NCBI GenBank assembly: GCA_015064445.1
Contig: SVSE01000004.1
Coordinates: 131,393 to 163,392 of the forward strand
DNA: 32,000 bases
Reading direction: 5' to 3'
Source: Oscillospiraceae bacterium
Lineage (GTDB): Bacteria; Bacillota; Clostridia; Oscillospirales; CAG-272
This document shows positions 3,340 through 29,218 of this stretch, piece after piece. A program made the translations under genes and the position numbers. Each line of letters starts with the position of its first letter. Positions within the stretch are counted from its first letter, which is position 1. The notes under the pieces are model-generated. The model ran no database searches. It was not told the origin of the DNA and was given only the letters and a program-made list of their open reading frames with translations.

Positions 3340-3660
3340 CATTCCTCACGGACAAGCGTCCGAGGCAAATCCCGCGTTTGCTTAGTAAGTATTGAACAAC
3401 TCCCACGAAGCAATCTCATTCCGAATTCCGAATTGAAGAACCCAAGCTCGCTGTTCTTTCGAACAGGCTACTACGTAGCTTGTGAAAATCAAATAGCATT
3501 TTCACGCTTGGAACCTTGATACTCGCTTTCGCTCGTATACGCATTCTCATTCCGAGTTCGTCGCGAAGCGATTTCATCCAAGTTCTACTTGGATTTCATC
3601 CCAACGGGATTTCATCCACCTTGGTGGATTTCATCCCCTTCGCATTCCGAATTTCTGCCC
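3340..3660. repeat. Composite repeat region: module M, two direct ATTCCGA heptamer tracts and a 4-unit GATTTCATCC hairpin array
   Basis: Nt 3365-3434 closely match 11800-11870 (ggcaaatYccgc..cttagtaagtattgaacaac..cgaagcaatctcattccgaattccgaatt). GATTTCATCC cores lie at 3570, 3592, 3608 and 3627, separated by small palindromes. A second cattccgaattt tract lies at 3642-3654. Confidence 0.7.
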
Positions 3661-4252: not shown

Positions 4253-4270
4253 AATAACCTCCAATACAAG

Positions 4271-4608
4271 GTGCGGAGTGCGGAATGCGGAGTGCGGAAT
4301 GTGTTTGCACTCTTTTGTTTTCCATTCTCCTTGTCATTTGTGTTTTTATTAGCCTTCTCCAGTGGGAGAAGGTGGCAGTCATAGACTGACGGATGAGGTG
4401 TTCATTCTAAGTGAACCGGCTACGCAATGATTTCTCGCTTCGCGACGGATTGGCTCCTTTCGAGGAAGGTAGCGAAGCGGCATTTTGGTAGTGAATAACT
4501 CTCGGGGAGAGTTAGAGCCAAAATGGGACCGAGCCGCAGCGAGATACTGGCGCGTAGCGACTGAGGGATTGCTTCATTCCGCATTCCGAATCCCGCATTC
4601 CGAATTCG
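4271..4608. repeat. Cargo-less element bounded by inverted heptamer arrays (GTGCGGA(A) units at 4271-4303; CATTCCG units at 4575-4608)
   Basis: The arms are imperfect reverse complements. The interior is a chain of nested hairpins with no credible ORF. The right arm ends 1 nt before the rimO stop codon, and the left arm lies just upstream of the pgsA RBS. Confidence 0.7.
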
Positions 4609-5934
4609 TTATGCAAGCTTTGCAATCAAATCATAGTCTAGCGCATCAATAACCTCAACCTCTATTATATCGCCCTCAGAGAGCGTGCCCTTTCTTGCGG
4701 GAATGAACACCTTTCCATCGATGTCGGGGGCGTCCTGCTTGCTTCTGGCACAATATGCCTCGCTTACTGGGTCGTATGCCTCTACAAGCACCTCAATTTT
4801 AGTGCCTATTTTCGATTTCTGCATTTCCTCGCTTATTCCGAGCTGATGCTCCATCAAAATATCGTATCTATCCTGCTTTACTTGCTCGTCAATTTGGTCC
4901 TCAAAATCGTGGGCGGGTGTGCCCTCCTCTCTTGAGTAGGTAAACGCACCAAAATGCTCAAAGCGTGCTTCCTTTATAAACGAGCAAAGCTCGCTAAAAT
5001 CCTCATCGGTTTCGCCTGGGAAGCCCACAATCGCAGTTGAACGAATGGAAATTCCCTCGATATGTGTGCGTAATTTGCGAATTACCTCTCTTACGAGCGC
5101 ACCATCTCCACGCCTATTCATACGCTTTAGAACGCGTGATGAGATGTGCTGAATCGGCAGGTCTATGTATTTTACGAGCTTTGGATTTTCATTAAACTCC
5201 CTTATAAGCTCGTCCGTTATCTTGTCGGGATAGCAATAAAGAATTCTAAGCCACTTAACATCTGTTTCAGTGGCAAGTCGGCGCAATAGCGTGTGAAGCT
5301 GATAGCTACCGTAAAGGTCGATTCCGTACGCAGTTGTGTCCTGTCCCACTACAACAAGCTCCTTTATACCAAGCCCGTCGACAAGCTCCTTAGCCTCGCG
5401 CACAATGTCGTCCATTTCGCGAGAACGGAATTTTCCTCTTATATCGGGAATTGCGCAATAGGTGCAACGATTATTACAGCCCTCAGAGATTTTGAGGTAT
5501 ACCATAGCGTCGCCCGTGGTAACTATTCTGTCGCCACCGAGCTCTACCTCGTTTTTGTCCTTGAACGAGGTGTATTTTTCGCCATTTGAGATAGCCTCGA
5601 TTGCCTCGACAATGTCGTGGACGCTTCCTGTTCCCAAAAGCGCATCAACCTCTGGCATCTCCTGCATTACCTCCTCGCGATAACGCTCTGCGAGGCACCC
5701 TGTGACGATAATTCCCTTTAAATTGTTATTTTCCTTAAGCCAAGCGATGTCCAAAATGTTGTCAATTGACTCCTTTTTGGCATCTCCTATAAAGGCGCAG
5801 GTGTTGATTACAACTATATCTGCCTCGGTTTCGTCAGGCGTGATTTCATAGCCTGCACTCGCTATGTGTCCGAGCATAACCTCGGTATCAAGCTGATTTT
5901 TTGGGCAACCGAGCGAAACAAAGCCTATTCTCAT
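4609..5934 (-). CDS. rimO: Ribosomal protein S12 methylthiotransferase (radical SAM, MTTase family)
   Basis: RimO-type N-terminus (IGFVSLGCPKNQLDTE), a radical-SAM CxxxCxxC motif (CNNRCTYC) and a C-terminal TRAM-like domain. The ATG overlaps the recX stop (ATGA). Confidence 0.8.
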   Translation of the reverse strand: MRIGFVSLGCPKNQLDTEVMLGHIASAGYEITPDETEADIVVINTCAFIGDAKKESIDNILDIAWLKENNNLKGIIVTGCLAERYREEVMQEMPEVDALLGTGSVHDIVEAIEAISNGEKYTSFKDKNEVELGGDRIVTTGDAMVYLKISEGCNNRCTYCAIPDIRGKFRSREMDDIVREAKELVDGLGIKELVVVGQDTTAYGIDLYGSYQLHTLLRRLATETDVKWLRILYCYPDKITDELIREFNENPKLVKYIDLPIQHISSRVLKRMNRRGDGALVREVIRKLRTHIEGISIRSTAIVGFPGETDEDFSELCSFIKEARFEHFGAFTYSREEGTPAHDFEDQIDEQVKQDRYDILMEHQLGISEEMQKSKIGTKIEVLVEAYDPVSEAYCARSKQDAPDIDGKVFIPARKGTLSEGDIIEVEVIDALDYDLIAKLA

Positions 5935-6581
5935 ATCTGCTCCTGTGCCTCTTGGAAAAGATGAATTGCGCTCTTTATGTCGTTAATGTTGTAGCCATAA
6001 CGCATAAGTGCTGTCATCATCTTTTTAAGCCCGTCGGCATCCTTTGGCAATGGATTATACTTGTGCTCAATAATCCAAGCGCAGTTTTCAGCAAAATTAA
6101 CCTCGGCAAGGGCGTCCTTAACATACTCGGAAACCTCGTCACGACGGTAGCCCTTTAAAATAAGCTCCTCGGTAATCTTGATTCTACCAAATTTCTTTTT
6201 AAGATAAGTGTCAATAAGCAAGCCCATCTGCTTTTTCTCATCAATGTAGCCACGATGCTCCATGTATATTGCAACATTTTCGCAAAGCTCACGAGAAAAG
6301 CCCTGTGCCATAAGCTTGTTAACAAGCATCTTTTTATTGTTTTCGCCATAGGAAAGGATTGAAAATGCGTGTCTGCGAGCATTGTCAAACAAATGCTCCT
6401 CTCTTATCTTGAGAAAATGCGCATCGTCAATAATCTCTCCCTCGTCAAGATCAAAGCGATCGTACTGATCAGGTGAAACAGGCATCTCAAAATTCGTTCC
6501 CATAGAGGAAGCGATGAAAAAGATATATCCCTGCGCGGTCTTTTTAATCTTTTCGATTTTGTAGTAAATTTTATTATCCAT
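5931..6581 (-). CDS. recX: RecX-like regulatory protein
   Basis: Helical-repeat protein of about 216 aa lying downstream of recA. I prefer ATG 6581 (MDNKIYY), which has an AAAGGAAA RBS. The assignment rests on size, position and general RecX-like repeat character. Confidence 0.6.
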   Translation of the reverse strand: MDNKIYYKIEKIKKTAQGYIFFIASSMGTNFEMPVSPDQYDRFDLDEGEIIDDAHFLKIREEHLFDNARRHAFSILSYGENNKKMLVNKLMAQGFSRELCENVAIYMEHRGYIDEKKQMGLLIDTYLKKKFGRIKITEELILKGYRRDEVSEYVKDALAEVNFAENCAWIIEHKYNPLPKDADGLKKMMTALMRYGYNINDIKSAIHLFQEAQEQI

Positions 6582-6615
6582 ATTTTTCCTTTCAGGCATA
6601 GCCTGACGCGTTAAA

Positions 6616-6673
6616 GTGTGAAATGCGAGGTGCAAAGTGCGAAGTTCGACTCCGCAACCTCATTAATTCACAC
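6616..6673. repeat. Long hairpin built from GTGCGAA-type heptamers (recA-recX spacer)
   Basis: GTGTGAA (6616-6622) pairs with TTCACAC (6667-6673), and GAGGT (6627-6631) pairs with ACCTC (6657-6661). The interior contains gtgcaaagtgcgaagtt heptamer units. Confidence 0.55.
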
Positions 6674-6710: not shown

Positions 6711-6837
6711 TTCGATTGATTAGAACAAGTTAGGTTAGGCGCACCGGAAACTGCGGACGACGGCGTACTTGGTGTACGGTTAGGTCGCAGTTGAGGAGCA
6801 ACAACACATAACGCAGTTATAATCGGTCGAAATTAGT
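6711..6837 (-). repeat. Stop-codon-anchored imperfect-palindrome element, copy A1 (after recA)
   Basis: 127 nt. The flanks are identical to copy A2 (36 nt and 45 nt). The 16-nt terminal inverted repeats are ttcgattgattagaac (6711-6726) and gttataatcggtcgaa (6816-6831). The repeat runs through the recA TAA. Confidence 0.85.
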
Positions 6838-7942
6838 CTTCGAGTCCGAGCGCGCTAAGATCAAAATCCCCATTATCCAAAATGTCGTCCTCCATCTCTG
6901 GAGCTTCGCCATTAGCAAGCTTTGCTTTGATTTTTTCCTCAAGCTCTGCCATTATGTCAGGGCTTGCCTCAAGATGCGCCCTCATCTTGTCCTTACCTTG
7001 AATTTTTGTTTCGCCATAGGTAAAGAATGAGCCACTCTTTTCAACAATTCCGAGCTCGATTGCCATATCAACGATTTCAGTTGACTTGGAAATGCCCGAG
7101 CCATAGAGAATCTCGAACTCTGCTACCTTAAATGGTGGAGCAACCTTGTTTTTAACAACCTTTGCCTTAACTCTGTTACCGTAAGCCTCGCTTCCGTTTT
7201 TGAGAGTTTCGCTCTTTCTTATATCAATTCTAACCGATGCATAGAATTTAAGCGCGTTACCACCTGTTGTTGTTTCAGGATTTCCGTACATAACGCCTAT
7301 CTTGCTTCTGAGCTGGTTGATAAAGATAAGAATACAGTTTGTCTTGTTGATTGCACCTGCGAGCTTACGGAGCGCCTGTGACATAAGTCTTGCCTGTACG
7401 CCCATATGACTGTCGCCCATTCCACCCTCGATTTCCTGCTGAGGAACGAGTGCAGCAACGGAGTCAATTACAATTATATCCACAGCGCCAGAGTTTATAA
7501 GCGCCTCGGCAATTTCGAGTGCCTGCTCTCCATTATCTGGCTGTGAAACCAAAAGCTCGTCAATGTCAACACCGATAGCCTTTGCATATACAGGATCGAG
7601 TGCGTGCTCTGCATCGATAAATGCAGCAGTTCCTCCCTGCTTTTGGCTTTCTGCCACTGCGTGAAGTGCTATTGTTGTCTTACCTGATGATTCAGGACCA
7701 TAAATTTCAATAATTCTTCCCTTTGGAAGTCCACCTACGCCAAGCGCAAGGTCAAGGGAAAGAGAGCCTGTTGATACTGCACTGATTTTGATATCAGGAG
7801 CATCGCCCAAACGGATAATTGAGCCCTCGCCATTATCCTTTCTTATCTGAGCAAGTGCTGTTTCAAGGGCCTTTTTTCTCTGATCAGCTGTGCTTTCAGC
7901 TACGCCCTTTTTTTCAGTCTTTGCCGACTTCTTTGTTGCCAT
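6833..7942 (-). CDS. recA: Recombinase RecA
   Basis: 369 aa with Walker [10 protein letters not shown] and full-length RecA-like sequence ([20 protein letters not shown]..). Confidence 0.97.
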
Positions 7943-8093
7943 ATTTATTCCTTTCCGCGCGGTCGAGAGCCTCGACGGGCATCATCCGCGTTCGATTCTT
8001 TAATTTGCTTAGTCCTCACGAAGCAATTTTCACTTCGCATTCCGAATTTCATTACTTATTAAATTCGAGCAAAACTCGTATTTAAGTGTCTTT

Positions 8094-8207
8094 GTGCTAA
8101 ACAAGACAAGGCGCACCGGAAGAACAACGGACGACGGTGTATACTCATACTCCGAGGTCGGTGTTCGGGAGCAACGCAGTATTGTAACGCACAAAGCGCT
8201 TAAATTA
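8094..8207 (-). repeat. Stop-codon-anchored imperfect-palindrome element, copy B1 (after the lipoprotein gene)
   Basis: Shares caagacaaggcgcaccg..gacgacggtgtat..tactccgaggtcgg..cgggagcaacg with the reverse complements of 26362-26466 and 26722-26834. It begins TAATTTAAG at the gene's stop codon. Confidence 0.8.
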
Positions 8208-8765
8208 ATAAGTAGGACCGTCTATTCTCCAACCGTCAGCCTCGTAAACCAAAACAACCTCAAGTGTGCTATCTCCGTCTACGCTTTTAACGGTGGCTTT
8301 TATTTCTCTTCTTCTGTTTTTTGTAATTTCAAGCGTTGATGTGTCGTATTTTTCAACCTCGTCCAAGATATTATCATAATCCTTACGCACGGTTAGGTAT
8401 CCGTCGTAGCCTGTTATATATCTTGCGTAAAGGACAACTCCGTAGCTCGATGTGCCATCGATATAAACGCTTATCAAATCGTCTGCTATTCTATCGGAGA
8501 AAACAGCCTTTGTTTCAACGATTAGGTCGTTTCGGAGCTTAAAGGGCGAATCCTCTGCTATATGATAATAGCTTCCCTCAACCTGCTCCTCCTCATCGTA
8601 GGGCAAGCCCTCTCCGTAATATGCCACATTGAGATTATACGAGCGCTCGAGGAGGTCGCACGCGATATCGTACGCCTCTTCATCGCTTTGTCTTTTACAG
8701 GATGGGAGCAAAATAACGCTCGCCAGCAATAAAACCATCAACAGAACAGCTATAAATCTTCTCAT
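8205..8765 (-). CDS. Hypothetical lipoprotein
   Basis: Signal peptide with a lipobox (LLPSC). The ATG lies 3 nt after the gyrA stop. I recognise no family. Confidence 0.6.
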   Translation of the reverse strand: MRRFIAVLLMVLLLASVILLPSCKRQSDEEAYDIACDLLERSYNLNVAYYGEGLPYDEEEQVEGSYYHIAEDSPFKLRNDLIVETKAVFSDRIADDLISVYIDGTSSYGVVLYARYITGYDGYLTVRKDYDNILDEVEKYDTSTLEITKNRRREIKATVKSVDGDSTLEVVLVYEADGWRIDGPTY

Positions 8766-8768
8766 AGC

Positions 8769-11309
8769 TTATTCAGCCTTTGGCGCATCCTCGGTAGCCT
8801 CTGGAGCTGTGTCTGTAGCATCTGCTACTACCTCGCCCTCGACTGCCTCGATTTCCTCTTCGTCTTCCTCTCTGTCTGTAAAGGTCATCTTCGCAACCTT
8901 ATTGCCCTCAGAGATTCTGATTACACGAACACCTGATGCGCTTCTATTATATACAGGAACCTCGTCAACATGAGTTCTTATAACAACACCTGCGTCGGTA
9001 ATTGCCATAATGTCATCCTCTACCGTTACAGCACCGATTGTTGCAAGCCTTCCTGTCTTATCGTTTACATTGTGTGCACGAACACCGAATATACCACGGT
9101 TTCTTGCCTCGAAGTCGCTAAACTCACTGCGCTTACCAAAGCCGTTTTCGGTAACTGTGAGAAGCTGCTTTGTATCATCAACGATAACTGCACCACAAAC
9201 CTCGTCATCTCCACGAAGCTCAATACCACGAACACCACGGGCAGTTCTACCAACGATAGAAACCTTGTCCTCGTTAAAGCGTACGCCCTGGCCGTTTCTT
9301 GATGCAATAAGAATATCGCTGTCGCCCTTAGTGTGTCCAACGAAGATAAGCTCATCGCCCTCGTCAAGATTGATTGCAATCTTTCCACCCTTGCGCTGAT
9401 ATTCATATTCCATAACTCTTGTGCGCTTAATTACGCCCTTGCGAGTTACCATTGTGAGATATTCATTCTCCTCGAAGGAATCAATTGCTATCATAGCAGT
9501 AACCTTTTCGCCCTTTTCGATTTCGATAATGTTGATAAGGTTAGCGCCCTTTGATGTTCTTGAGCCCTCTGGGATTCTATAAACCTTTCTTACGAAAATC
9601 TTACCATTGTCAGTAAACATAAGAAGGTGTGAGTGTGAATTTGCAACGAGAATGTTCTCAATGAAGTCCTCGTCCTTTGTGCCCATTGCGATAAGTCCCT
9701 TACCACCTCTGTGCTGTGCCTCGTAGGTGTCGGCAGGTACTCTCTTAATGTAGCCTGAATTTGTAAGAGTGATTACGCACTCGTGTCTTTCAATCAAGTC
9801 CTCAAGGTCGATTTCGTCCTCGCTGTCAACTATCTCTGTACGACGGTCGTCTGCGTATTTTCTCTTGATTTCCAAGAGCTCGCTCTTGATGATTTCTCTA
9901 ATCTTTTGTGGGTCAGCCAAGATACCGTTAAGCTCTGCAATAGTTGCGTGAAGCTTTTCAAGACGGTCCTCAACCTTTTGTCTTTCCATACCACTAAGGC
10001 GTCCGAGAGTCATTTCAACTATTGCCTGTGCCTGCTCATCACTTAGCAAGAAGCGCTCCGAGAGTCTTTCCTTTGCAACAGCTGTGCTTTCGCTTGAACG
10101 AATAATTGAGATTACCTCATCGATATTGTCAATAGCTATCTTATAGCCCTCGTAGATATGTGCCTCAGCCTGAGCCTTACGAAGCTCAAAGCGAGTTCTT
10201 CTCTCAACAACCTCCTCCTGGAACTTGATATACTCGCCCAAAATCTCACGAAGTCCAAGTGTCTTTGGCTCTCCGTTTACGAGCACGAGCATATTCATAG
10301 CGCAGGTGTCCTGAAGCTGTGTATTCTTGTAAAGCTGATTAAGAATTACCTGAAGGTTCGCATCACGGCGACACTCAATAACAATTCTCATACCAGCGCG
10401 TCCACTCTCGTCACGAATACCTGTAATTCCCTCTACGCGCTTGTCCTTAACGAGGTCAACCATCTTTTCGATAAGCTGGCTCTTGTTTACCATATAAGGG
10501 ATTTCAGTTACAACGATTCTGTGGTGCTCCTCATCACATTCAGCCTTGGAGCGAACTGCAACACGACCTCTACCTGTGGTGTATGCATCAAGAATTCCCT
10601 TCTTGCCATAGATTGTAGCATAGGTTGGGAAGTCTGGACCCTTTACATACTCCATCATTTCCTCAACTGTTGCCTCAGGATTGTCGATAAGATGAACTGT
10701 ACCGTCAATTACCTCGCCAAGGTTGTGCGGTGGAATATTTGTTGCCATACCAACTGCGATACCAACGCTTCCGTTTACAAGCACATTTGGGAAGCGAGAT
10801 GGGAGCACGGTTGGCTCCTTTCTCGAGTTATCGAAGTTAGGAACGAAGTCCACAACCTCTTTTTCGATATCTGCCATAAGCTCATTTGCGAGCTTAGACA
10901 TTCTTGCCTCTGTATAACGGTAAGCAGCAGCGCCATCGCCGTCAACATTACCGAAGTTTCCGTGTCCATCGATAAGTGGATGACGAAGTGAGAAGGGCTG
11001 TGCCATTCTTACCATTGTTCCGTATACGGCTTGGTCGCCGTGTGGATGATATCTACCAAGCACATTACCGACGGTTGTCGCCGATTTTCTAAAGGGCTTG
11101 TCAGATGTGAGGTGGTCCTCATACATTGCGTACATTACGCGTCTTTGTCCTGGCTTCATACCGTCACGAACATCAGGCAACGCACGGGAAACTATAACGC
11201 TCATTGAGTATTCAAGGAACGCTTCCTTTACTCTTGACTCAATGTTGCGATTTACTATCATCTGCTCGATATTCTCATAATCAAGCACATTGTGTTCTTT
11301 TTCTGCCAT
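8769..11309 (-). CDS. gyrA: DNA gyrase subunit A
   Basis: 846 aa with the active-site region [13 protein letters not shown], the N-terminal [18 protein letters not shown] motif, beta-pinwheel CTD repeats and an acidic tail. A GGAGGAG RBS lies upstream of ATG 11309. Confidence 0.97.
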
Positions 11310-11327
11310 ATGGCTCCTCCAATTGGC

Positions 11328-11885
11328 AAATGCGGAATTCGGAGTGCGGAATTCGGAATGTATCCGTTTCCTCTTCCTTGTCCGTTTTGCCTATCATTTA
11401 TTGTTTAAATTTTCCTTGGTGGTTTTGGTTATTGACACCAAAATACTACAAATTTCATCAATGTTATTGTATATGCTTTCAAATTCGTTTTGCGTAAGAT
11501 ATTCCGTTTTATACAGCAACCTTATCCAATAGCTTGTTTCGTTAGCTTCCTTCAAGGCAATGGTCATTTTTGTATAAAAATCCGCAGTTGTTTGAGCTTT
11601 TTGAGCCTCGAAAACATTTGCTCCCACGCTCGTTCCACACCTCAAAAGCTGTTTTGATAAAACCGTTTCTTTTTTCTTGGCTTTTAAGTAGTTGCACAGC
11701 TTTACTATTCTAACGGCGAAATCAAAGCTTTTTTCTTCTATTACATTTCCCATTTCGTTTCGCTCCAAATATCATTCCGCATTTCGCAGGCACGCGCCTG
11801 AGGCAAATTCCGCACTCACTTAGTAAGTATTGAACAACCCTCGCGAAGCAATCTCATTCCGAATTCCGAATTCCGCATTCCGAAT

Positions 11886-11887
<2 letters not shown>
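11328..11887 (-). mobile_element. Inverted-heptamer cassette 1 carrying a four-helix-bundle gene (IVS-like element)
   Basis: The left arm is aaatgcggaattcggagtgcggaattcggaatg (11328-11360). The right arm is cattccgaattccgaattccgcattccgaattt (11855-11887). They match 29/33 as reverse complements. The cargo is the CDS at 11394-11753 plus module M (about 11800-11854). Mobility is inferred, not shown. Confidence 0.55.
11394..11753 (-). CDS. Four-helix-bundle protein (23S rRNA intervening-sequence protein family)
   Basis: 119 aa with the family hallmarks FDFAVRIVKL..LLRCGTSVGANVFEA..KMTIALKEANET.YW. I prefer ATG 11753, which has a GGAG RBS inside the track's TTG-initiated extension. Confidence 0.85.
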   Translation of the reverse strand: MGNVIEEKSFDFAVRIVKLCNYLKAKKKETVLSKQLLRCGTSVGANVFEAQKAQTTADFYTKMTIALKEANETSYWIRLLYKTEYLTQNEFESIYNNIDEICSILVSITKTTKENLNNK

Positions 11888-13928
<2,041 letters not shown>

Positions 13929-13959
13929 TCAGAATTTTAAGCTTTTAGTCGGTATCTTT

Positions 13960-13968
13960 ATTTTATCA
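13960..13968 (-). promoter_or_regulatory. Putative extended -10 (TGaTAAAAT) upstream of gyrB
   Basis: The minus strand reads tatgTGaTAAAATaaag. There is no good -35. The same TGATAAAAT 9-mer occurs at three other putative promoters in the window. Confidence 0.35.
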
Positions 13969-14025
13969 CATAAAAACGGACAAAACGGACAACCTGAGAG
14001 CCTCTCAGCTCTATGCACCTGCGGT

Positions 14026-14191
14026 GATGAATTGATGCTAACGCATCATGAATTCTCGCTTCGCTCCATGAATCGAATTGCAACACCAAATGCCGAAGGC
14101 AATTCATGCGATTTATCGCAATTCATGACACGCAGTGTCAATTCATGCAACGCAGTTGCAATTCATTGTGAAATAGCAGGAGCTATTTCAC
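14026..14191. repeat. Hairpin-chain array C1 (CATGAAT / AATTCATG cores)
   Basis: AATTCATG/T cores lie at 14101, 14120, 14140 and 14160 (spacing 19-20 bp), each followed by a 10-11 nt palindrome. The left half carries inverted CATGAAT cores. Homologous arrays lie at 17518-17677 and 29219-29437. Confidence 0.8.
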
Positions 14192-14428
14192 ATATTCCGT
14201 GTGCGACCCAATCGTCGATGAATTAAACGGGCTCAAATACACCGTTTCATCTCTCATTACAACAAACGATTTCGGTAGCTCGTAGCCGAGCGCCCTCACG
14301 CGCCCGTGCGCCTGCGCGCGTGATAAAAAATTTCGCGTATGCACGGACACCGTGGACGAGTCAAGGTCAAATATCGCCACAATGTCGCACCTTCTTACGC
14401 TTTTATTGTTTCCAAGGTTTACATACAT
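14183..14428 (-). CDS. remB: DUF370 / RemB-like small protein
   Basis: 81 aa. The N-terminus MYVNLGNNKSVRRCDIVAIFDLDS resembles the DUF370 (RemA/RemB) family, and the position between recF and gyrB is conserved in Firmicutes. Confidence 0.6.
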   Translation of the reverse strand: MYVNLGNNKSVRRCDIVAIFDLDSSTVSVHTRNFLSRAQAHGRVRALGYELPKSFVVMRDETVYLSPFNSSTIGSHTEYVK

Positions 14429-14433
14429 AGAAA

Positions 14434-14919
14434 GTTCGAAGTGCGAAACGCGAAGTGCGAAGTTATCTCTTGCACGGGCATTCTCGCATATCCTTTAGTT
14501 ATTTTTAGAAATATTTTCCTTTGTGGTTTTAGTTATTGCTACCAGCATTCCACAAATTTCTCTTGCATCCTTTTCTATACTTTCAAATTCGCTATCTGAA
14601 AGATAGTCGGTTTCGTGTAAAAGATTGATCCAATAAATGGTTTCGTTTGCTTCCTTTAATGCAATAGACATTTTTGCATAAAAATCGGGCTTTGATTGTC
14701 CTTTTTCGGCTTCAACTACGTTTGCGCCGATACTCGTTCCCGCCTTTAGAAGTTGATTTAAAAGAATCAAGTTGCTCTTTTTTTCTTTTAAGTGGTCGTA
14801 TAGCTTTACGATTCTGGTTGCGAATTTGAAGCTTTTTTCCTCTATAATGCTATTCATTTTCGCCACCAACCTTGAATTTCGCGTTTTCAACTTCGCACTC
14901 CGCACTTCGCACTTCACAC
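14434..14919 (-). mobile_element. Inverted-heptamer cassette 2 carrying a four-helix-bundle gene
   Basis: The left arm is gttcgaagtgcgaaacgcgaagtgcgaagtt (14434-14464). The right arm is cttcgcactccgcacttcgcacttcacac (14891-14919). They match about 24/29 as reverse complements, in TTCGCAC-type heptamer units. Mobility is inferred. Confidence 0.55.
14495..14857 (-). CDS. Four-helix-bundle protein (23S rRNA intervening-sequence protein family), paralog 2
   Basis: 120 aa (MNSIIEEKSFKFATRIVKL..GTSIGANVVEA..KMSIALKEANETIYW), by eye about 60% identical to the 11394-11753 product. ATG 14857 has a GGTGG RBS and overlaps the recF 3' end by 8 nt. Confidence 0.85.
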   Translation of the reverse strand: MNSIIEEKSFKFATRIVKLYDHLKEKKSNLILLNQLLKAGTSIGANVVEAEKGQSKPDFYAKMSIALKEANETIYWINLLHETDYLSDSEFESIEKDAREICGMLVAITKTTKENISKNN

Positions 14920-16019
14920 TTTATTTTCTTTCCCTCGGAAAGATAAATAAAGCTCGTATCGCTCGCCTCGAAATGCTGTGGCTCACACGAGGTAATTATT
15001 ACCTGTCGATTATTTATATTTGAGAGCACATATGCGCGCCTTGTTGGGTCAAGCTCGCTCAACACATCATCAAGTAAGAACACAGGATACTCTCCTGTAT
15101 GCTCCCTTGAAATCTCGCCCTCTGCCATTTTCATAGCCAAGGCAAGCGACCTCTGCTGTCCCTGCGATGCGTAAAGTCGTGCGTCCTTACCGTTTATCTC
15201 GATTTTTAAGTCGTCCTTGTGTATTCCAAACAAGGTTGCGCCATATTTGTATTCTCTTTCGAGATTCTCCGAAAGAAGAGTTGCGTATCTGTTTTTGAGG
15301 CTCTCGCGTGAGTCAAAATCAACGCCCTGTGCGTTGGTTTCGTATGTGATGCTCGGCGTCTCTGCCCCACTCGTCATTTGAGAAAAGAATTCCTTAACCC
15401 ACTTGTCGAGCTTTCTTACATATTCGCATCTCGCATTCGCAATATCAGAGCAAAGTGAGGCAAGCTCACTCGAATAAAAGTCAAGCGTATCTCTGTATTG
15501 CTCCCTCTCGGTTGGCTCCATCTTGAGTATCGCGTTTCGAGAGGACATTACATTGTTATATCTCGCCATTAGCTTGATATATACAGGCTTTAGCTGGCTT
15601 ATCGCAACATCGAGGAAGTTTCTCCTCACGCTCGGTGAGTCGCTTATAATTCCAAGATGCGACGGGCAAAATAGCACAGCCCTAAACTCGCCTATTATGT
15701 CGGCAGTCCTCTGCACCCTGTTGCCGTTCTTGTAAAACGCCTTAGATGCGCTCCTCGATATCTCAGCGCCTATCTTTGTCGTCTCCGAGCGCTTCTCATA
15801 CTCCATGAGCGCGTAGGCGACGCTTTTGTCGAACATTATCATTTCCTTGTCCTTGAACGCACGGAAGCTCTTTCCACGCGCAAAAAGATATATAGATTCG
15901 ACTATGTTCGTCTTTCCCTGAGCATTTCGCCCGTAAATTACATTAACCGTCGGCGAAAACTCTATCAGCTCCTCGTCTATGTTCCTAAACGAGGTCAATT
16001 TTATATTTTTTACTATCAT
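14850..16019 (-). CDS. recF: DNA replication/repair protein RecF (C-terminus extended into a repeat arm)
   Basis: Walker A GRNAQGKTN, signature SQGQQRS and Walker B FLLDDVLSELD. The last 24 or so residues (KCEVRSAECEVENAKFKVGGENE) are encoded by the heptamer arm of cassette 2. Confidence 0.9.
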   Translation of the reverse strand: MIVKNIKLTSFRNIDEELIEFSPTVNVIYGRNAQGKTNIVESIYLFARGKSFRAFKDKEMIMFDKSVAYALMEYEKRSETTKIGAEISRSASKAFYKNGNRVQRTADIIGEFRAVLFCPSHLGIISDSPSVRRNFLDVAISQLKPVYIKLMARYNNVMSSRNAILKMEPTEREQYRDTLDFYSSELASLCSDIANARCEYVRKLDKWVKEFFSQMTSGAETPSITYETNAQGVDFDSRESLKNRYATLLSENLEREYKYGATLFGIHKDDLKIEINGKDARLYASQGQQRSLALAMKMAEGEISREHTGEYPVFLLDDVLSELDPTRRAYVLSNINNRQVIITSCEPQHFEASDTSFIYLSEGKKIKCEVRSAECEVENAKFKVGGENE

Positions 16020-16020
16020 A

Positions 16021-16075
16021 TGTTAATGTACTTTTTTCTTTAATGGAAGAAAAAAGCTACCAAAAAAGAAACTAA
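16021..16075 (-). repeat. Leader module D1, immediately upstream of the recF ATG
   Basis: The sequence cttttttctttaatggaagaaaaaagctaccaaaaaagaaac is about 70% identical to 17446-17499 upstream of dnaN. A polypyrimidine/polypurine hairpin has a second competing pyrimidine tract. Confidence 0.55.
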
Positions 16076-16146
16076 ACTAAGAATTATACGAATAAATAAA
16101 TTAGCGTATTTTAGACACCTTAGAGCAAGTAAGGTCCTCTCTTTCA

Positions 16147-16272
16147 TTCGATTGATTAGAACAAGTTAGGTTAGGCGCACCGCAGGCGACAGACGAAGGC
16201 TATCTTATGATAGTCGAGGTTGTCGGCGAGGAGCAACAACACATAACGCAGTTATAATCGGTCGAAATTAGT
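16147..16272 (-). repeat. Stop-codon-anchored imperfect-palindrome element, copy A2 (after dnaN)
   Basis: 126 nt. The flanks are identical to A1. The 45-nt core is only about 44% identical to the A1 core but can still form the same two stems. The repeat runs through the dnaN TAA. Confidence 0.85.
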
Positions 16273-17413
16273 TGTTCATTCTAATAGGCATAACGAAGTA
16301 CTTATATGTCGCCTCGTCCTTATTCTGTGGCTCGATGAGAACGCCCATGAGTGGATTATTATACGACATTTTTATTTCACAGTCGTCACATACACGGAGT
16401 GCGTCGAGCATAAAGCGACAGTTGAAGCCTATTACGATTTCTCCGTCGTCATCCTTTCTTATCGGAATTGTATCAAATACATTTCCGTTTGAGGATGTGG
16501 TTGACACCAAAAGCTCCTCGCCTACTGTGAATTTTACATATGAACGAACGCTTCCTGCAAGACGGTCCTCAACGATAAGTGAGCTTCTTTCAAGCGCGCC
16601 ACGAAGTGTTGCACTGTCAAGATATGTTACCACCTTGTGTGTTGATGGAAGAATTCTGTTATAGTCAATGTACTCGGAGTCGATGGTCTTTGAGAAGAAC
16701 ATATATGCGCCGAAGTGGAAAATGATATAACGACGGCTGATTCTTATCTCCATCTTCTCGTCTGTGTCCTTGGTCATCTTAAGAATGTCGCTTAAGGTCT
16801 TGCCAGGAACGATAAATTTAAGGTTGAGGGACATTCCGTCCTTGTTTCTGTTTTCGAGAACTATGTCCTTTTCACAATATGCAAGTCTGTTACCGTCGCA
16901 GGCAACGAGGAGCATATTGTCACTTGTAATCTTGAAGTATGCACCATTAAATACAGGGCGAGAGTCGTTTTGTCCTATCGCAAAGTATACTCTGTTTACA
17001 AGATTTCTGAAAAGGCTCTGCTCAATTATAAAGCCTCTGTCACCGATTACCTCTGGAAGTGGTGGGAACTGGTCGCCAGGGAGCGCCTTAATGTCAAAGT
17101 GTGATGGGCCAGACTCAATTTTGGTTGAGAATGTGTCGTCAACCGTCAAGCGAATGTCGCCAGCTGGCATTACCTTCATAATTTGAAGGAGTTTGTTCGC
17201 GTTGATTATTACATCGCCCTCCTCCTCTACATTTGCAATAATAGAGGTGCGGAAGCCCTTTTCAAGGTCCTGTGTTTCAATTTTGCACTTGCCATCCTCA
17301 GTACAGATAAGATGCACGCCCTCAATTGTCGCCATTGTGTTTTTTCCTGCTACGCAAAGAAGCGCTGGGCTGAGCGCGTTCATTAAAGTGTCTCTGTCAA
17401 AAATTACTACCAT
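16268..17413 (-). CDS. dnaN: DNA polymerase III beta sliding clamp
   Basis: Full-length beta-clamp-like sequence located between dnaA and recF. I prefer ATG 17413 (MVVIFDRDTLMNAL), which has a GGGAGAAAAG RBS, over the track start at 17467. Confidence 0.93.
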   Translation of the reverse strand: MVVIFDRDTLMNALSPALLCVAGKNTMATIEGVHLICTEDGKCKIETQDLEKGFRTSIIANVEEEGDVIINANKLLQIMKVMPAGDIRLTVDDTFSTKIESGPSHFDIKALPGDQFPPLPEVIGDRGFIIEQSLFRNLVNRVYFAIGQNDSRPVFNGAYFKITSDNMLLVACDGNRLAYCEKDIVLENRNKDGMSLNLKFIVPGKTLSDILKMTKDTDEKMEIRISRRYIIFHFGAYMFFSKTIDSEYIDYNRILPSTHKVVTYLDSATLRGALERSSLIVEDRLAGSVRSYVKFTVGEELLVSTTSSNGNVFDTIPIRKDDDGEIVIGFNCRFMLDALRVCDDCEIKMSYNNPLMGVLIEPQNKDEATYKYFVMPIRMNN

Positions 17414-18233: not shown

Positions 18234-19619
18234 TTAGTTACTAAGCTCTCTTATAATTTCCTTAATATCGAATGCGAAATCGCTATCCTTCTCCATTGCG
18301 TCCTTGACAGCCTTTTCGCTTGAAACAAGAGTTGATCTATCACGATTAAGAATCTTTGCAATTTGAGTTTGAGAAAGCGAGGTAAGCTCTCTTGCTATGT
18401 AAACGCAGATATGTCTTGCCATAGCAATATCCTTTTTTCTCTTTTCAGAGAGGATATCCTCACGCGAGATTCCGAACTTTGTGGAAACTGCCATTAGGAT
18501 TTCATCAAATTTCTTTGATTCATTTTCCTTAACCTGAACAAAGTCCTTTATTGCGTCCTTAACACGGTCAAAGCTAAGCTCTCCACCCTGCAAGAACTTA
18601 ATAGCGCCAAGCTTTTTAATAATTCCCTCAAGCTGACGGATTGATGATGAAACATTGTCGGCAATGTATTTCAAAATCTCGCTTGAAAGATAGATATTAT
18701 TCTGCTTTGCCTTTTGTTGAAGAATTGCGAGCCTTAAATCAAAGTCTGGCAAGGAAACATCTGCCAAAAGACCACTCAAAAATCTTGTTCTAAGTCTTTC
18801 CTCAAGAGTTTTGATTTCATTTGGTGGACGGTCCGAGGTCAAGATGATTTGCTTTCTTTCCTCATAAACTGCATTAAAGGTGTTGAAAACCTCAAGCTGT
18901 GTTGAATCTCTACCAGCGACGAACTGAATATCGTCAATTAGAAGAACATCAACGCGTCTAAACTTTTCTCTAAATTCAAAGGTTGTTTTATTTCTAATCG
19001 CCTCAACGAGCTGATTAGTAAACTCCTCGCCCTTGATATATACAATTTTCTTTGAAGGATATCTTTTTGCAAGCTTATTTGTAATAGCATAAAGAAGATG
19101 CGTCTTACCTACACCACTTGGTCCATAAATAAAGAGTGGATTATAGGCATTTGAGCGAAGCGTTTCAGGGTCATCAAGATCCTTTTCTGAAACTGCCCTT
19201 GCAGCAGCATATGCAAATTCGTTTGATGCGCCAACGATAAAGTTATCAAAGGTATAATCCGAGCGATAATCATCAGGCATTACAATATCATCAGCTGTAG
19301 CCTCTCCGAGCTCTACCTTTTTAAAATGCTCAAGCTTTGGGGCGGAAAGGTCAATTTCCTCATTCTCTGTTGAGATGATAACAATTCTTGGTCTATAATT
19401 AACGATTGAGCAAAGTGCGTCCTGCATTTCCTCTGCGAAGTTTTCCAAAATTACATCTCTTTTTAAGTTATTAGTTGTTGTGAACATTGCTTCCTTTGAG
19501 GTAAGAGAAACAAACTCCATATCACCAAACCAGAGATTGTAGGCTGTGTCGACATGCTTTGATTTCAAAATTTCCGACATAGGAGCCCAAATAGCTTCCA
19601 AATTTTTAAAGTCTGACAC
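18234..19619 (-). CDS. dnaA: Chromosomal replication initiator DnaA
   Basis: 461 aa with AAA+ Walker A GPSGVGKTHLL and a C-terminal DnaA-box-binding domain (DIAMARHICVYIAREL). It has a GTG start at 19619 with an AAGGAAGG RBS. Confidence 0.97.
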   Translation of the reverse strand: MSDFKNLEAIWAPMSEILKSKHVDTAYNLWFGDMEFVSLTSKEAMFTTTNNLKRDVILENFAEEMQDALCSIVNYRPRIVIISTENEEIDLSAPKLEHFKKVELGEATADDIVMPDDYRSDYTFDNFIVGASNEFAYAAARAVSEKDLDDPETLRSNAYNPLFIYGPSGVGKTHLLYAITNKLAKRYPSKKIVYIKGEEFTNQLVEAIRNKTTFEFREKFRRVDVLLIDDIQFVAGRDSTQLEVFNTFNAVYEERKQIILTSDRPPNEIKTLEERLRTRFLSGLLADVSLPDFDLRLAILQQKAKQNNIYLSSEILKYIADNVSSSIRQLEGIIKKLGAIKFLQGGELSFDRVKDAIKDFVQVKENESKKFDEILMAVSTKFGISREDILSEKRKKDIAMARHICVYIARELTSLSQTQIAKILNRDRSTLVSSEKAVKDAMEKDSDFAFDIKEIIRELSN

Positions 19620-20980: not shown

Positions 20981-23900
20981 TTAGTTATTCTCTTTTGATA
21001 TGCTTATAATGCTACCACAGTCTGGGCAATATGTAACATTGTCATTGACGGTTGGAGTGCTATTGTGCTCAAAATCCTCACAAGGCTTGTAATTTTGAAT
21101 TACAAAGTCAAATTCAACGCTATCAATATAATCCCAGCAATCAAACTCAAGAGTGTAGGTTACTCCCTCTACAAGATAACAATTTAAATAGAAATTATTA
21201 TCTACTCCACTATTGTCGTTAACAAGTATAAGAGAATCTTCCTCATAGATATATAATACTGTGTCATGGTCGCCAATAGAATAAAATGAGTAAAATCCAC
21301 TTACGCTTGGAGTAAATTCAAATGTATTATTTGAATTTGACAATGTATAATTATGTATTTGTGCAAAGGTATTATATGAGCATTGTGAGCAATTACCAGA
21401 GAGATGATAGCATTCGCCTGAGTCAATTACATTATATACAAGAGAATGGTCATCTATTAATGCAAAATTAGAGATACCGAGGCATTCAACACAAATATCG
21501 ATTAAAATTTGTCTGCCCAAGCAGCCTGTTGAATTAAAATCAATTTTATGTCTGCTTGTATAACAATCGCCACAAATATTAACTGCGCCCTCTGCTACTA
21601 CAAATGATATGTCAATATTTTCATCAAAATCATAGTCGCCAGCTCTTAAAACATAGGTCTCTCCCTCGATTAAATCATAGGTAATCAAGAAATTGTTATT
21701 TATTCCATCATCATCGTTTGATGCAACAAGCTTATATTCGTTATCAACTAGCATATAAAGCCTTGCCTCTGTGTCATAACCTGTTACGGAATAGAAGGAA
21801 TATGTAGCTGTTTTTGGAGCGGTAAATATGTAATCATAGCAATAGCTACCGTCTGATGCCATTCGTGTGCTAACATTAAATATTGTTGATATTGCGCTCT
21901 TATTACATTCGGTGCACCTTGCTGTAACGGTTGGATTGCCAGCATAGCCAGGCTCAACAGTAGGAGTAAATGTGTGCTCTATTTCCTCGTATGAGAATAT
22001 CTTTTCATAGAAAGGAGTATTTCCCTTGCAAATTTCAATGGTTGAATAGTAAAGAACGACACATCCGTCCTTATTTTCCTTGCCCTCGCCTATGCGAAGC
22101 TTATAATCACATGTGCTACAGGAATATTCCTTTACGCCACCAGACTCGACAAGTGTAAGAGATTCATAATCTCCGTAAAGATCAATTTGTCTGTTACATA
22201 CACACGCCATTATGTCAAGGTTATGGGAATTACAAATATTGTCGCCCTTGCTTTGGTCTAAATCAAGGCTATAAATAAGATCTGTTATATGAGAATTGAA
22301 TGGGAAAACATCATAATGGTCACAATTTTTGCAGGCTTTTGCCATATAACCACCGTTTTTACAGTTGCCATCAATTATATTTATATTAATATTCTCGTAA
22401 TCGTGAGATGTACTCGCTTCCTCAATATATTTATAATCCTCAAAAAGCACAACTCCAGCAATTTTAGCAGTAATATCAATGTATTTCATAGCGGTACAGC
22501 CATCTGTCTTGGTTGTTCCCTTTAATATGAATACAACCTCGCCATTTTGCGACTCATATTTTTCAAAACCGTCCTCCACTGTTTTAGTAAAATCAGAAAG
22601 GGAAATTTCATAAATATTTGAGCTAATGCAAGTGCCACATGGACAGTATTTTACATTTAAGACAAGCTCGTTTGAGATAGTTGAATCGTACGAGTTAAGA
22701 ATATATTCTTCCTCAATTAAGCCCTTGCACTCGTTTATTATTTCAGATTCAGAATAGTCACAGGCTGTGCACGCGCTTACAATTTCAACGCCGTCCTTAC
22801 AGGTTGCGCCAAGAAGATTATAGCTTTCTTCAAGATTGTGCTCGGTATATTCGTAAATAACGCTTGTAAGCGATGTTGTGCCATAGAAAATATCTCTTGT
22901 CATTACAGTATGGCAATTTTCATCGGTTGCCATTGAGTAGGAATACTTAATAGGACAGCTACTACATGAATAGGTGTATACAGTAACGCCATTTACAACC
23001 TCTGCTGATGGTGTCATAGTACAGCTATATTCATAATCCATGTCAATAACCAAGCCACACGCATCACAAACTCTATTTAAAATCCAAGCGCCAGGGCAAG
23101 CGTCATCACAGCCTGTCAAATCAACATATTTTTCGGTAAATGAGTTGTGATAGTCGCTCTTGTATGATGCCTTTTGGTGACATTCCTTACATTCGCCAAC
23201 CATAATCACGCCATCATAGCAGGATTTGTTTTCCTCGTCTGTGAAAAGATATTTTATGTCCCAATCACACTCGCCACCAGCATATTCTTCGTCGATAAAT
23301 GAGGTAATAGGAGTGTCATTTTGGTCGTAAATTACAAGCTCGACAACATCTGTTTTGTTACAGCCGTCTAATTTTGTGTACTTGTCGATGACTATCTTAA
23401 GTGAGCAATCATCGCAGTCAATTGTTGTTATATTGTGTGTTAGTCCATCGAGCTTTGTTACACTCTCGGCTTCAGGCATTACACCATCATTACAAAAGAT
23501 TTCATATTCTTGAACATATAAAATCTCGCCACAGTCCTCACAAGCGCCAACATAGAAGTAGTTGTGACAGCTACTATACTCTCTTAGGTCAAGATAATAA
23601 GATACAGCATTTGAGTGACTTGGAATTTGCTCGACAACCGAGCCATCAAGATATGTATTTTTATCGTCGAAAATTTTAACTGAAAGCGAAAGCTCCTCAA
23701 CACAATTGCTTTTTGAGGTAACCTGTGTTTGATTTGACTTAATTCCACAGGTGGTGCAGGTGCCATTTTTGTCAAGGGTGCAAAGATATGAAAGGCATTC
23801 CGTATCTAAGGTCTGCATTTTACATTCCTTACACTCGGTGTAGCCAATAAAGCTTGGGCAGTAGCCATAATCGGCAAGATTTAGATACTTTGTATCAAGC

Positions 23901-24400
23901 TCCTTATGAGGACATTCGCTCTTACATCTAATGCACTTACCGTCGTTTTTATACTCGTGGCCAAGCGCGCTTATTTCAATTTCCTTAGACTCGGTATAGG
24001 TTGTTCCCTCAAAGGAAGCAGATGCGCGAATATATTTCTTACCATTTGCAGTACAGGTAGGCGCATCGCCTGCAACCTCCTCAAGTGTTGCTGAGATATT
24101 TTTCTCGTGTGCGCTATTAATCGAGCATTTTAGAGAAAGAAATGCAAAGCTCAAATCGTCGCTCCAAATCCAGCCCGACACCTCATAGTCGTGCTCAAGC
24201 GTAATTTCAAGCGCTTTAGTTTCCGTTTCGGTGCAATTCTTACAGGTTCTCTTCTGCTCTCCTGCGCTTTCGCAGGTGGGGGCTACGGTAATAATCCATT
24301 CGCCAAAGTCGTGCGATTCACATTCCTTATCACAGGAAAAAAGCACAAGCGAAAGGCAAATTATCATAGCACAAATTAAAAGTGATAGTAATTTTTTCAT
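20981..24400 (-). CDS. Large Cys-rich surface lipoprotein with two C-terminal PPC-like (pre-peptidase C-terminal) domains
   Basis: 1139 aa with a lipobox (LVLFSC) and an AAAGGAG RBS. The module H-x-[FYL]...C-x3-8-G...C-x2-C recurs many times. Two C-terminal repeats of about 85 aa (F.FTP...Y.FYS.G.DT.LY......ND......F.....L.EG.TY.L) have the look of PPC domains. Confidence 0.7.
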   Translation of the reverse strand: MKKLLSLLICAMIICLSLVLFSCDKECESHDFGEWIITVAPTCESAGEQKRTCKNCTETETKALEITLEHDYEVSGWIWSDDLSFAFLSLKCSINSAHEKNISATLEEVAGDAPTCTANGKKYIRASASFEGTTYTESKEIEISALGHEYKNDGKCIRCKSECPHKELDTKYLNLADYGYCPSFIGYTECKECKMQTLDTECLSYLCTLDKNGTCTTCGIKSNQTQVTSKSNCVEELSLSVKIFDDKNTYLDGSVVEQIPSHSNAVSYYLDLREYSSCHNYFYVGACEDCGEILYVQEYEIFCNDGVMPEAESVTKLDGLTHNITTIDCDDCSLKIVIDKYTKLDGCNKTDVVELVIYDQNDTPITSFIDEEYAGGECDWDIKYLFTDEENKSCYDGVIMVGECKECHQKASYKSDYHNSFTEKYVDLTGCDDACPGAWILNRVCDACGLVIDMDYEYSCTMTPSAEVVNGVTVYTYSCSSCPIKYSYSMATDENCHTVMTRDIFYGTTSLTSVIYEYTEHNLEESYNLLGATCKDGVEIVSACTACDYSESEIINECKGLIEEEYILNSYDSTISNELVLNVKYCPCGTCISSNIYEISLSDFTKTVEDGFEKYESQNGEVVFILKGTTKTDGCTAMKYIDITAKIAGVVLFEDYKYIEEASTSHDYENININIIDGNCKNGGYMAKACKNCDHYDVFPFNSHITDLIYSLDLDQSKGDNICNSHNLDIMACVCNRQIDLYGDYESLTLVESGGVKEYSCSTCDYKLRIGEGKENKDGCVVLYYSTIEICKGNTPFYEKIFSYEEIEHTFTPTVEPGYAGNPTVTARCTECNKSAISTIFNVSTRMASDGSYCYDYIFTAPKTATYSFYSVTGYDTEARLYMLVDNEYKLVASNDDDGINNNFLITYDLIEGETYVLRAGDYDFDENIDISFVVAEGAVNICGDCYTSRHKIDFNSTGCLGRQILIDICVECLGISNFALIDDHSLVYNVIDSGECYHLSGNCSQCSYNTFAQIHNYTLSNSNNTFEFTPSVSGFYSFYSIGDHDTVLYIYEEDSLILVNDNSGVDNNFYLNCYLVEGVTYTLEFDCWDYIDSVEFDFVIQNYKPCEDFEHNSTPTVNDNVTYCPDCGSIISISKENN

Positions 24401-29207: not shown

Positions 29208-29218
29208 TAGGAGAGTCA

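Follow-up and report, generated by a model that had tools for sequence, protein, structure and literature searches.

We analyzed a 32,000-nucleotide window that represents the replication-origin region of an uncultured Clostridia genome and carries the operon gene string dnaA-dnaN-recF-remB-gyrB-gyrA on its minus strand. The spacer between recF and remB holds a gene for a four-helix-bundle protein, here called 4HB#2, enclosed by inverted arrays of heptamers. Our analysis indicates that this region is probably an intervening-sequence-type cassette, in which a PF05635/TIGR02436 gene lies in sense orientation between two inverted arms of five heptamers each. Its closest known relative is the S23p-encoding intervening sequence (IVS) of 23S rRNA, and here the same kind of element is found in a protein-coding operon. 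What we regard as new is a regular, family-wide design outside rRNA, which is apparently undescribed. The cassette and the two genes beside it consist of the following parts.

14850-16019, minus strand: recF, 389 amino acids, TIGR00611 equivalog (E 2e-102 over residues 3-344)
14889-14922, minus strand: 5' arm (mRNA sense), five A-G-T-K cores at 7-nt spacing, AGTGTGA AGTGCGA AGTGCGG AGTGCGA AGTT
14853-14921, minus strand: element-encoded RecF tail, KCEVRSAECEV from the arm and ENAKFKVGGENE from the spacer and the Shine-Dalgarno (SD) region
14858-14888, minus strand: spacer from the 5' arm to the cassette ATG, holding the SD-like GGTGG
14495-14857, minus strand: 4HB#2 cassette gene, 120 amino acids, PF05635/TIGR02436
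14431-14464, minus strand: 3' arm (mRNA sense), the complement of five heptamers, one of them degenerate; heptamers proper from 14434
14183-14428, minus strand: remB (RemA-like), 81 amino acids, NF046065 RemB equivalog (E 8e-15), PF04025

The cassette in the recF-remB spacer

The open reading frame (ORF) of 4HB#2 starts at an ATG at position 14857, 5 nt downstream of the SD-like GGTGG (14863-14867). Its product matches PF05635 (E 5.8e-26, 91 bits, cut-off 33.8), TIGR02436 'four helix bundle protein' (E 4.4e-30, 104 bits, cut-off 24) and the structure 2RLD in the Protein Data Bank (PDB; E 8.8e-32), an entry with 5 chains. It is 100% identical to P0121, a protein of a metagenome-assembled genome at NCBI that is named 'four helix bundle protein' there and bears the organism label Ruminococcaceae/Oscillospiraceae bacterium. 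4HB#2 and its paralogue in the window, 4HB#1 (11394-11753), both belong to the family of the 23S-rRNA-IVS protein (S23p), PF05635 '23S rRNA-intervening sequence protein'. An earlier note on this DNA, whose sequence statements were all confirmed, had correctly read the gene and its second copy as four-helix-bundle genes but had not recognized the link to this family. The two proteins share 61-62% identity, and their DNA is 70% identical over 275 nt. Because no relative outside its own species is more than 69% identical to it, we consider 4HB#2 an old paralogue and not a fresh duplicate; a recent duplication of the cassette between gyrB and gyrA (cassette 1) into the recF site is ruled out by the same figure together with the 61% identity to 4HB#1.

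Other roles for the protein were considered and set aside. An HEPN-like Rx4-6H motif (R15...H22 in 4HB#2) was rejected as catalytic, the His position being H or Y in the alignment. PADLOC returned no defence-system match. A search for phage carriage gave no PHROG match and only 2 relatives among 2.9 million viral contigs. Membership in a diversity-generating retroelement (DGR) as an Avd protein was also rejected: the bAvd-like profile PF22296 matched only 4HB#1, at E 6e-4 and 20.7 bits against a curated cut-off of 40, and the window contains no reverse transcriptase.

The arms, 34 nt each and 424 nt apart, are complementary at 29/34 positions (85%), which bears out the inverted TTCGCAC-type arms of the earlier note with somewhat better pairing than the 24/29 given there. 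Three tandem units, (AGTGCGA)x3 (21 nt, at most 3 mismatches), match the window 7 times against 0.00 expected from shuffled sequence, and the degenerate ARTKCGR x3 matches 21 times against 0.03 expected. When the minus strand of 14400-14950 was folded as RNA, the minimum free energy (MFE) was -141 kcal/mol, compared with -109 +/- 6 for shuffles (z = -5.2). Both the MFE and the centroid fold join the two arms into one long stem that closes around the ORF; either arm folded alone gave no structure. The Rfam scan of the window found no known RNA family at the arms or spacers, its sole match being a tRNA-Ser. It found no rRNA either, and the cassette is flanked by recF and remB, i.e., not by a 23S rRNA helix. 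The identity of both flanking genes is well supported, RecF matching positions 1-338 of 339 of the TIGR00611 profile (343 bits, cut-off 172) and RemB positions 1-73 of 84 of NF046065 (54.8 bits, cut-off 40).

Since the element fills the whole recF-remB spacer, it shapes both the end of RecF and the start of remB. The RecF family core (TIGR00611) ends at residue 344, and conservation within the clade ends near residue 366 ('...FIYLSEGKKI'). Residues 367-389 are KCEVRSAECEVENAKFKVGGENE, a tail (peptide KCEVRSAECEVENAK...) that takes 11 amino acids from the arm and 12 from the spacer between arm and ATG; the recF frame thus runs through the arm and its last residues are repeat encoded, as had been noticed before. 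The frame closes at the TAG at 14850-14852, 8 nt inside the cassette gene, within ATGAATAG. A TGA in the third frame is contained in the same octamer, and every upstream frame other than that of the cassette itself therefore stops at the cassette start. The stop/start geometry suggests that translation of the cassette may be coupled to that of recF.

A comparison of the C-termini of 120 RecF homologues answered whether such a tail is generally carried: it is absent from all homologues outside this species, and the segment that follows '...G[KR]' is hypervariable. The RecF protein P0001, which is 99% identical, diverges at the element boundary, and relatives with 90-92% identity have tails coded by other heptamer arrays (ECGIRNAEFGI, NAEFGMRSSE). 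An upstream ORF that reads through the whole arm, as recF does, is rare in the family; three other loci (L020, L046, L075) share the geometry in which this ORF ends within 8 nt of the cassette ATG.

On the other side, the arm ends 2-5 nt before the AUG of remB at 14428, and the mRNA reads ...CACUUCGAACUUUCU-AUG. The upstream sequence contains no SD and no in-frame start before a TAA; the SD is missing because the arm occupies the usual position of the ribosome-binding site. remB uses its annotated start.

Several relatives allow the history of this junction to be followed. L087 and L088 are strain variants with the same cassette, its gene about 99% identical (L087 2860-3470 and L088 240-860, corresponding to 14400-15000 of the window), and their 5' arm has an in-frame 18-nt insertion, TTGGTGCGAAGTGCGAAT, that gives a RecF of 395 amino acids with the same tail lengthened. 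In L003 (RecF 90%), the RecF tail is also heptamer coded, and remB has a GGTGAGG SD and a TGATG stop/start overlap with no arm there. L004 (RecF 92%) has heptamer arrays but no four-helix-bundle gene between recF and remB; its remB follows a pyrimidine heptamer remnant as in the window and lacks an SD, and the gene caller extends RemB into the array (93 amino acids). L085 (RecF 82%) has a similar remnant, no SD before remB and no four-helix-bundle gene at this place, and L086 (80%) carries dispersed arrays together with a TTG start. Among the closest relatives, RemB itself stays well conserved. The cassette ORF has repeatedly been lost. The earlier note had described a cassette that rewrites the recF C-terminus and removes the remB ribosome-binding site. 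As a description of the present states this is right, but it does not hold as the lesion of a recent insertion: a read-through RecF is common to L003 and L004 and an SD-less remB to L004 and L085, and because relatives share them we regard both as old, tolerated states.

Heptamer arms and gene placement across the family

To see how general this arrangement is, relatives were collected by a scan of one genome per GTDB species. At least 594 were confirmed, and the best 80 of these come from Clostridia, Bacteroidota, several proteobacterial classes, Acidobacteriota, Planctomycetota, Verrucomicrobiota, Cyanobacteria, Chloroflexota and KSB1. The family is very widespread and spans about ten phyla. 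For each locus, the 200 nt upstream of the gene were aligned to the reverse complement of the 200 nt downstream, and a score of at least 26 was taken as inverted arms. Such arms were found at 73/79 related loci and in 8/545 shifted controls (1.5%). The suggestion that the two cassettes of the window represent a family of elements therefore extends far beyond the window; the accompanying view that they use heptamers of different kinds does not stand, because ATTCCGN and TTCGCAC correspond to AATKCGG and AGTGCGA, which follow one consensus, A-R-T-K-N-N-N.

The heptamer logo is A (98%), R (A77/G20), T (95%), K (G44/T54), N, N, N. In 55 elements, the array that precedes the ORF has the purine-rich ARTG strand as its sense strand; 2 elements show the reverse. 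Five cores per arm are present in 43/81 of the 5' arms and 46/81 of the 3' arms, whereas controls mostly have one. The consensus unit is the same, or differs by one mismatch, between the two arms of an element in 47 of 53 cases. The N-N-N triplet varies from element to element in step with protein relatedness; it is common to an element and its nearest protein neighbour in 26/73 cases against 3.8 expected (maximum 10 in 1,000 permutations), and in the AATTACG group the proteins are 78-85% identical across phyla. The arms, then, travel with the gene over evolutionary time.

These data bear on another explanation of the locus, an ordinary host gene beside simple repeats generated by chance or slippage, with no element and no function of the arms. 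The spacers of this genome are indeed rich in several unrelated repeat modules, and heptamer arrays also occur alone. However, the same inverted, five-unit arrays of fixed polarity recur in some ten phyla at a frequency far above that of the controls, and shuffles predict zero matches in the window, so that we regard this explanation as effectively refuted.

A second explanation concerns what the arms are for and can coexist with an intervening-sequence-type cassette. The arms may be primarily protein-binding sites, with the five heptamers of an arm, as single-stranded RNA or DNA, wrapped on a homopentameric ring of the four-helix-bundle protein much as on TRAP or the distal face of Hfq, one subunit per A-R-T-K core. 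Binding to the 5' arm, directly ahead of the SD of the protein's own gene, would then autoregulate translation and determine stem formation and cleavage. We consider this possible but doubtful. In its favour, cores per arm peak at five, all three inverted pairs of the window have five, and the crystallized homologue 2RLD, encoded by Bacteroides thetaiotaomicron, has five chains. XCC0516 has been cited as a homopentameric toroid (PMC4990558). Positions 1 and 3 of the unit are invariant across phyla, positions 5-7 are element specific and track the protein, polarity is fixed, the arm that precedes the ORF having ARTG on its sense strand, 13-40 nt separate this arm from the ATG in most loci, and the median pI of the family is 8.5. 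On the other hand, five units (32 nt) also make about three turns of an A-form duplex, which would suit RNase III as a substrate; the fixed polarity and the common N-N-N triplet may reflect shared descent; and 4HB#2 is mildly acidic (pI 6.1), its binding putative. Ring-shaped RNA readers are familiar from other systems: TRAP reads 11 GAG/UAG triplets and the distal face of Hfq reads A-R-N triplets, in each case with as many repeats as ring subunits and free spacer bases. The likeness is a functional analogy only, as neither protein is homologous to the four-helix-bundle protein and the repeat unit of the cassette is 7 nt.

The position of the elements relative to their neighbours is regular as well. 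The upstream neighbour is codirectional at 71/79 loci and both neighbours at 58/73. Measured from the outer edge of the 5' arm, the upstream stop codon falls between -30 and +10 nt at 42/65 loci; it is often part of the first heptamer (e.g., TAA-ATGCGG, TGA-GTGCAG), to which cassette 1 conforms with the TAA of gyrB. At 37/49 loci, 0-60 nt separate the 3' arm from the downstream start, with the SD usually retained in Clostridia and the ATG abutted in Bacteroidota and others. Host operons include gyrB-gyrA (L051, L057, L086, L089 and the window), type I restriction-modification, T2SSE, ABC transporter and dnaX operons. At seven loci, the 3' arm ends 5-16 nt ahead of the mature 5' end of a tRNA or tmRNA encoded on the same strand (tmRNA: L034 3393 and L067 3390; tRNA: L009, L026, L032, L033 and L040), a stable-RNA context that can be likened to that of the rRNA intervening sequences. 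An rRNA location was seen in 0 of the 16 related loci scanned, and most other related loci are flanked by long ORFs.

Intervening sequences of rRNA have been known for more than 30 years, yet their origin and the role of their ORF are not understood. Our data suggest that the rRNA cases may be a minority of a far larger and very regular family, with members inside operons of core function (gyrB-gyrA, recF-remB, dnaX, type I restriction-modification) and in tRNA/tmRNA leaders. Three handles for further study are the conserved A-R-T-K heptamer code, the five-repeat rule that matches a pentameric protein and the stop-to-start placement rule. More speculatively, PF05635 genes with five-heptamer arms might form one pan-bacterial, transcript-embedded class in which a pentamer reads five A-R-T-K repeats and thereby governs formation of the stem, excision by RNase III and the translation of its own gene; we put this forward only tentatively. 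If true, the class would be a self-regulating, RNA-level passenger of operons that fills the exact stop-to-start or pre-tRNA/tmRNA gap. The arms also matter for annotation, as they lengthen upstream ORFs (the RecF tail) and create false N-terminal extensions (the 93-residue RemB call of L004), and they may reshape the expression of essential operons. Many of the more than 6,600 homologues sit on contigs of 500-1,500 bp, and the heptamer arms may be points where metagenome assemblies break. The open-access literature, which was also searched with literal arm sequences, yielded no account of PF05635 cassettes with heptamer arms outside rRNA; they may be mentioned elsewhere.

Proposed RNA-level mechanism, known systems and counterevidence

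We propose that the cassette is transcribed with its host operon and has no promoter or terminator of its own, because predictions of promoters and terminators showed no excess across 11200-16300. In the transcript, the arms would pair into a stem of about 30 bp that closes off the cassette mRNA. This stem would be a likely RNase III substrate, so that the polycistronic RNA could be cut between recF and remB; we propose the site because the intervening sequences in the rRNA of Coxiella, Leptospira and Salmonella are processed by RNase III, and processing of the cassette is suggested by this analogy. Ribosomes translating recF would open this stem and reach their stop codon on top of the cassette AUG. 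Cassette translation would thereby be coupled to recF, and the ribosomes would compete with cleavage. For remB, translation would begin without an SD, possibly on a short leader left by processing. The element resembles a passenger, selfish or semidomesticated, that passes on mainly by vertical descent and is rarely transferred; it does not resemble an actively hopping transposon.

The known system with which we compare the cassette is the S23p IVS of 23S rRNA, described in Coxiella burnetii, Leptospira, Xanthomonas, Brucella and Haemophilus. The Coxiella element has an S23p ORF, a 28-bp terminal stem and tandem heptamers of strain-variable number, with RNase III cleavage mapped to the middle of the stem, and RNase III also excises the Leptospira and Salmonella elements (PMC4990558). 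Like these, the cassette has an ORF of the PF05635 family in sense orientation inside the host transcript, terminal inverted repeats that give a stem of approximately 28-34 bp around the ORF, an overall element length of about 430-490 nt, and tandem heptamers beside the ORF that vary between strains (five cores per arm and the 18-nt indel in L087/L088). It differs in lying in the intercistronic spacer of a protein-coding operon and not in helix 9, 25 or 45, and in having one arm fused into the upstream coding frame and the other abutting the next start codon. The SD of the cassette ORF is usable, whereas that of the Coxiella ORF is poor and is removed by cleavage, and the Coxiella unit GATGACA fits the A-R-T-K consensus at only 3 of 4 core positions. 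RNase III excision is known for the rRNA elements, whereas the cassette stem is a predicted duplex.

Three other systems resemble the cassette in part. The CREE (Correia-type) elements of Neisseria occur in hundreds of near-identical copies with a defined target duplication. These elements, also called nemis, are intergenic and cotranscribed with neighbouring genes; RNase III binds their RNA hairpins and can cleave them, which alters adjacent expression (PMC2649163). The cassette resembles them in being a short intergenic element with terminal inverted repeats, and may act similarly on mRNA; unlike the cassette, CREE have no ORF and their arms are not tandem heptamers. A Correia-type miniature inverted-repeat element (MITE) is ruled out here by the ORF, by the divergence of the copies (61% in protein, 70% in DNA over 275 nt) and by the lack of an evident duplication at the arm edges. 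Avd, the accessory protein of diversity-generating retroelements, is a pentamer that binds nucleic acid and reverse transcriptase, and to our knowledge Avd genes do not carry heptamer arms. A family link between Avd and four-helix-bundle proteins has been described (PMC10053308). The fold of 4HB#2 is homologous, but, unlike an Avd module, the cassette has neither a reverse transcriptase nor a template/variable repeat pair in the window. Finally, the TAACTGA heptamers (STRR) of cyanobacteria and Beggiatoaceae are tandem 7-nt units in intergenic regions and near start codons (PMC4679880). Unlike the arms, they are direct and not inverted, do not fit A-R-T-K, and are reported in that paper with no mention of PF05635; a cyanobacterial family member, L071, has T[AT]ACTGA arrays on its flanks.

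Several observations weigh against a cassette of the intervening-sequence type. RNase III cleavage at this site would be an extrapolation from the rRNA elements. The mismatches between the arms show no sense-strand bias toward G.U pairs (44 versus 45), so that pairing at the RNA level is not separable from pairing at the DNA level or from concerted evolution. The recF stop codon lies inside the loop, and a cut in the stem would deprive recF mRNA of it, which suggests that translation prevents cleavage here or that cleavage is inefficient. What points to mobility is phylogenetic patchiness alone. An identical protein, P0216, in 10 places was considered as a case of recent transposition and rejected, since all 8 of the 10 with a readable downstream flank precede the same dnaX-type gene, so that P0216 represents a single locus. 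No pair of filled and empty sites with alignable flanks was found among the relatives L003, L004, L085 and L086, whose gyrB-gyrA and recF-remB spacers are nonhomologous mosaics of other repeat modules, and as a consequence insertion boundaries and a target duplication are not definable. An empty site at the strain level was sought by scanning JGI metagenome contigs for exact matches to the recF 3' core, with 0 hits.

Some of these points would fit a mobile element that acts at the level of DNA. The arrays would then be terminal inverted repeats for a recombinase encoded by the host or in trans, the protein a DNA-binding accessory, insertion would be targeted to the stop-codon-proximal ends of genes, and the RNA structure would be incidental. 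Arms and gene move together between phyla, presence or absence is polymorphic at recF-remB and gyrB-gyrA among relatives with 80-92% identity, and the window also holds a gene-less derivative and solo arrays. The lack of strand bias in the arm mismatches and the coincidence of the arm edge with the upstream stop codon also speak for it. We nevertheless consider such an element unlikely. The protein lacks a catalytic domain, and the window encodes no transposase, integrase or reverse transcriptase. No target-site duplication was seen, near-identical copies at different loci were not found (the two copies of the window are 61% identical), viral contigs contain hardly any relatives (the 2 cited above), and the strong bias toward the sense orientation points to a constraint at the transcript level. 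An intervening-sequence-type cassette remains our preferred reading of the recF-remB spacer.

Sister elements, other repeats and neighbouring genes

The window contains two further elements with inverted arms.

11328-11887, minus strand: cassette 1 between gyrB and gyrA, with 4HB#1 at 11394-11753
4271-4607, minus strand: gene-less armed element, inverted arms 4271-4298 and 4575-4607 with five AATG/AGTG-CGG cores

In cassette 1, the 5' arm (11855-11887) overlaps the gyrB TAA (11886-11888) and the 3' arm occupies 11328-11360; each arm has five AATK-CGG cores, and the gyrA SD (GGAGGAG) is kept outside the arm. Orthologous gyrB-gyrA cassettes are found in L086, L089, L051 and L057, the proteins of L086 and L089 being 76-78% identical to 4HB#1, and in L003 and L004 an unrelated 110-nt module takes the place of the cassette. 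In L089 (2880-3150), about 200 nt of other repeat modules are nested between the stop of the cassette gene and the 3' arm, so that the cassette loop tolerates secondary insertions; one of these modules also occurs at 3440-3520 of the window and at 2540-2620 of L002.

The arms of the gene-less element enclose about 280 nt of noncoding, structured sequence (RNA fold z = -6.2). Its 5' arm (mRNA sense) begins 1 nt after the TAA of the MiaB/RimO-like coding sequence (4609-5934), and about 20 nt separate its 3' arm from the SD and ATG of pgsA. A decayed four-helix-bundle gene was sought between these arms with tblastn, which found no remnant.

The remaining genes of the window to which the text refers are as follows.

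20981-24400, minus strand: ORF of 1,139 amino acids, no Pfam match at E 1e-5
18234-19619, minus strand: dnaA
16268-17467, minus strand: dnaN
11886-about 13838, minus strand: gyrB
11394-11753, minus strand: 4HB#1, paralogue of 4HB#2
8769-11309, minus strand: gyrA
8205-8765, minus strand: ORF of 186 amino acids, no Pfam match at E 1e-5
6833-7942, minus strand: recA
5931-6635, minus strand: ORF of 234 amino acids, no Pfam match at E 1e-5
4609-5934, minus strand: MiaB/RimO-like gene
3677-4264, minus strand: pgsA

Heptamer arrays of the same consensus also occur outside the three pairs. A purine-type array lies upstream of recA (8028-8048, minus strand), and a pyrimidine-type array (mRNA sense, 6622-6649) directly precedes the probable true start of the 5931-6635 ORF, so that recA has an array on either side, the two differing in polarity and lying 1.4 kb from each other. 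Solo arrays are present at 3414-3434 and 29173-29200.

Intercistronic modules of a second family, each of about 110 nt, are found on the minus strand at 16140-16270, 6715-6835 and 8095-8207, as well as in L004 (11573-11700) and L003 (4192-4312). These modules start exactly at the TAA of the upstream gene, contain a conserved TTGCTCC...GGTGCGCCTAACCTAAC, have a mean column identity of 71%, and had no match in Rfam. They come after dnaN, recA and the 186-residue ORF, and it is they that replace the cassette at gyrB-gyrA in relatives.

Other modular spacer repeats are located at 13958-14200, 29210-29440 and also 3560-3640. One spacer type consists of CATGAATTG direct 9-mers and another of GGATTTCATCC repeats, both with short hairpins between the units, and a TCTCCCTC...CCTCCCTCGTCAGATGGAGG module recurs as the reverse complement at 29290-29350 and in L002 and L003. 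Relatives carry the same spacer modules at other junctions.

In two independent assemblies, a recF that is 99% identical is found downstream of recA and not of dnaN (L001 3400-5109; L002 1-2972), and remB does not come next. On either side, homology to the window is lost within repeat modules, some 190 nt before recF and near codon 362, which suggests a repeat-mediated rearrangement of the recF segment.

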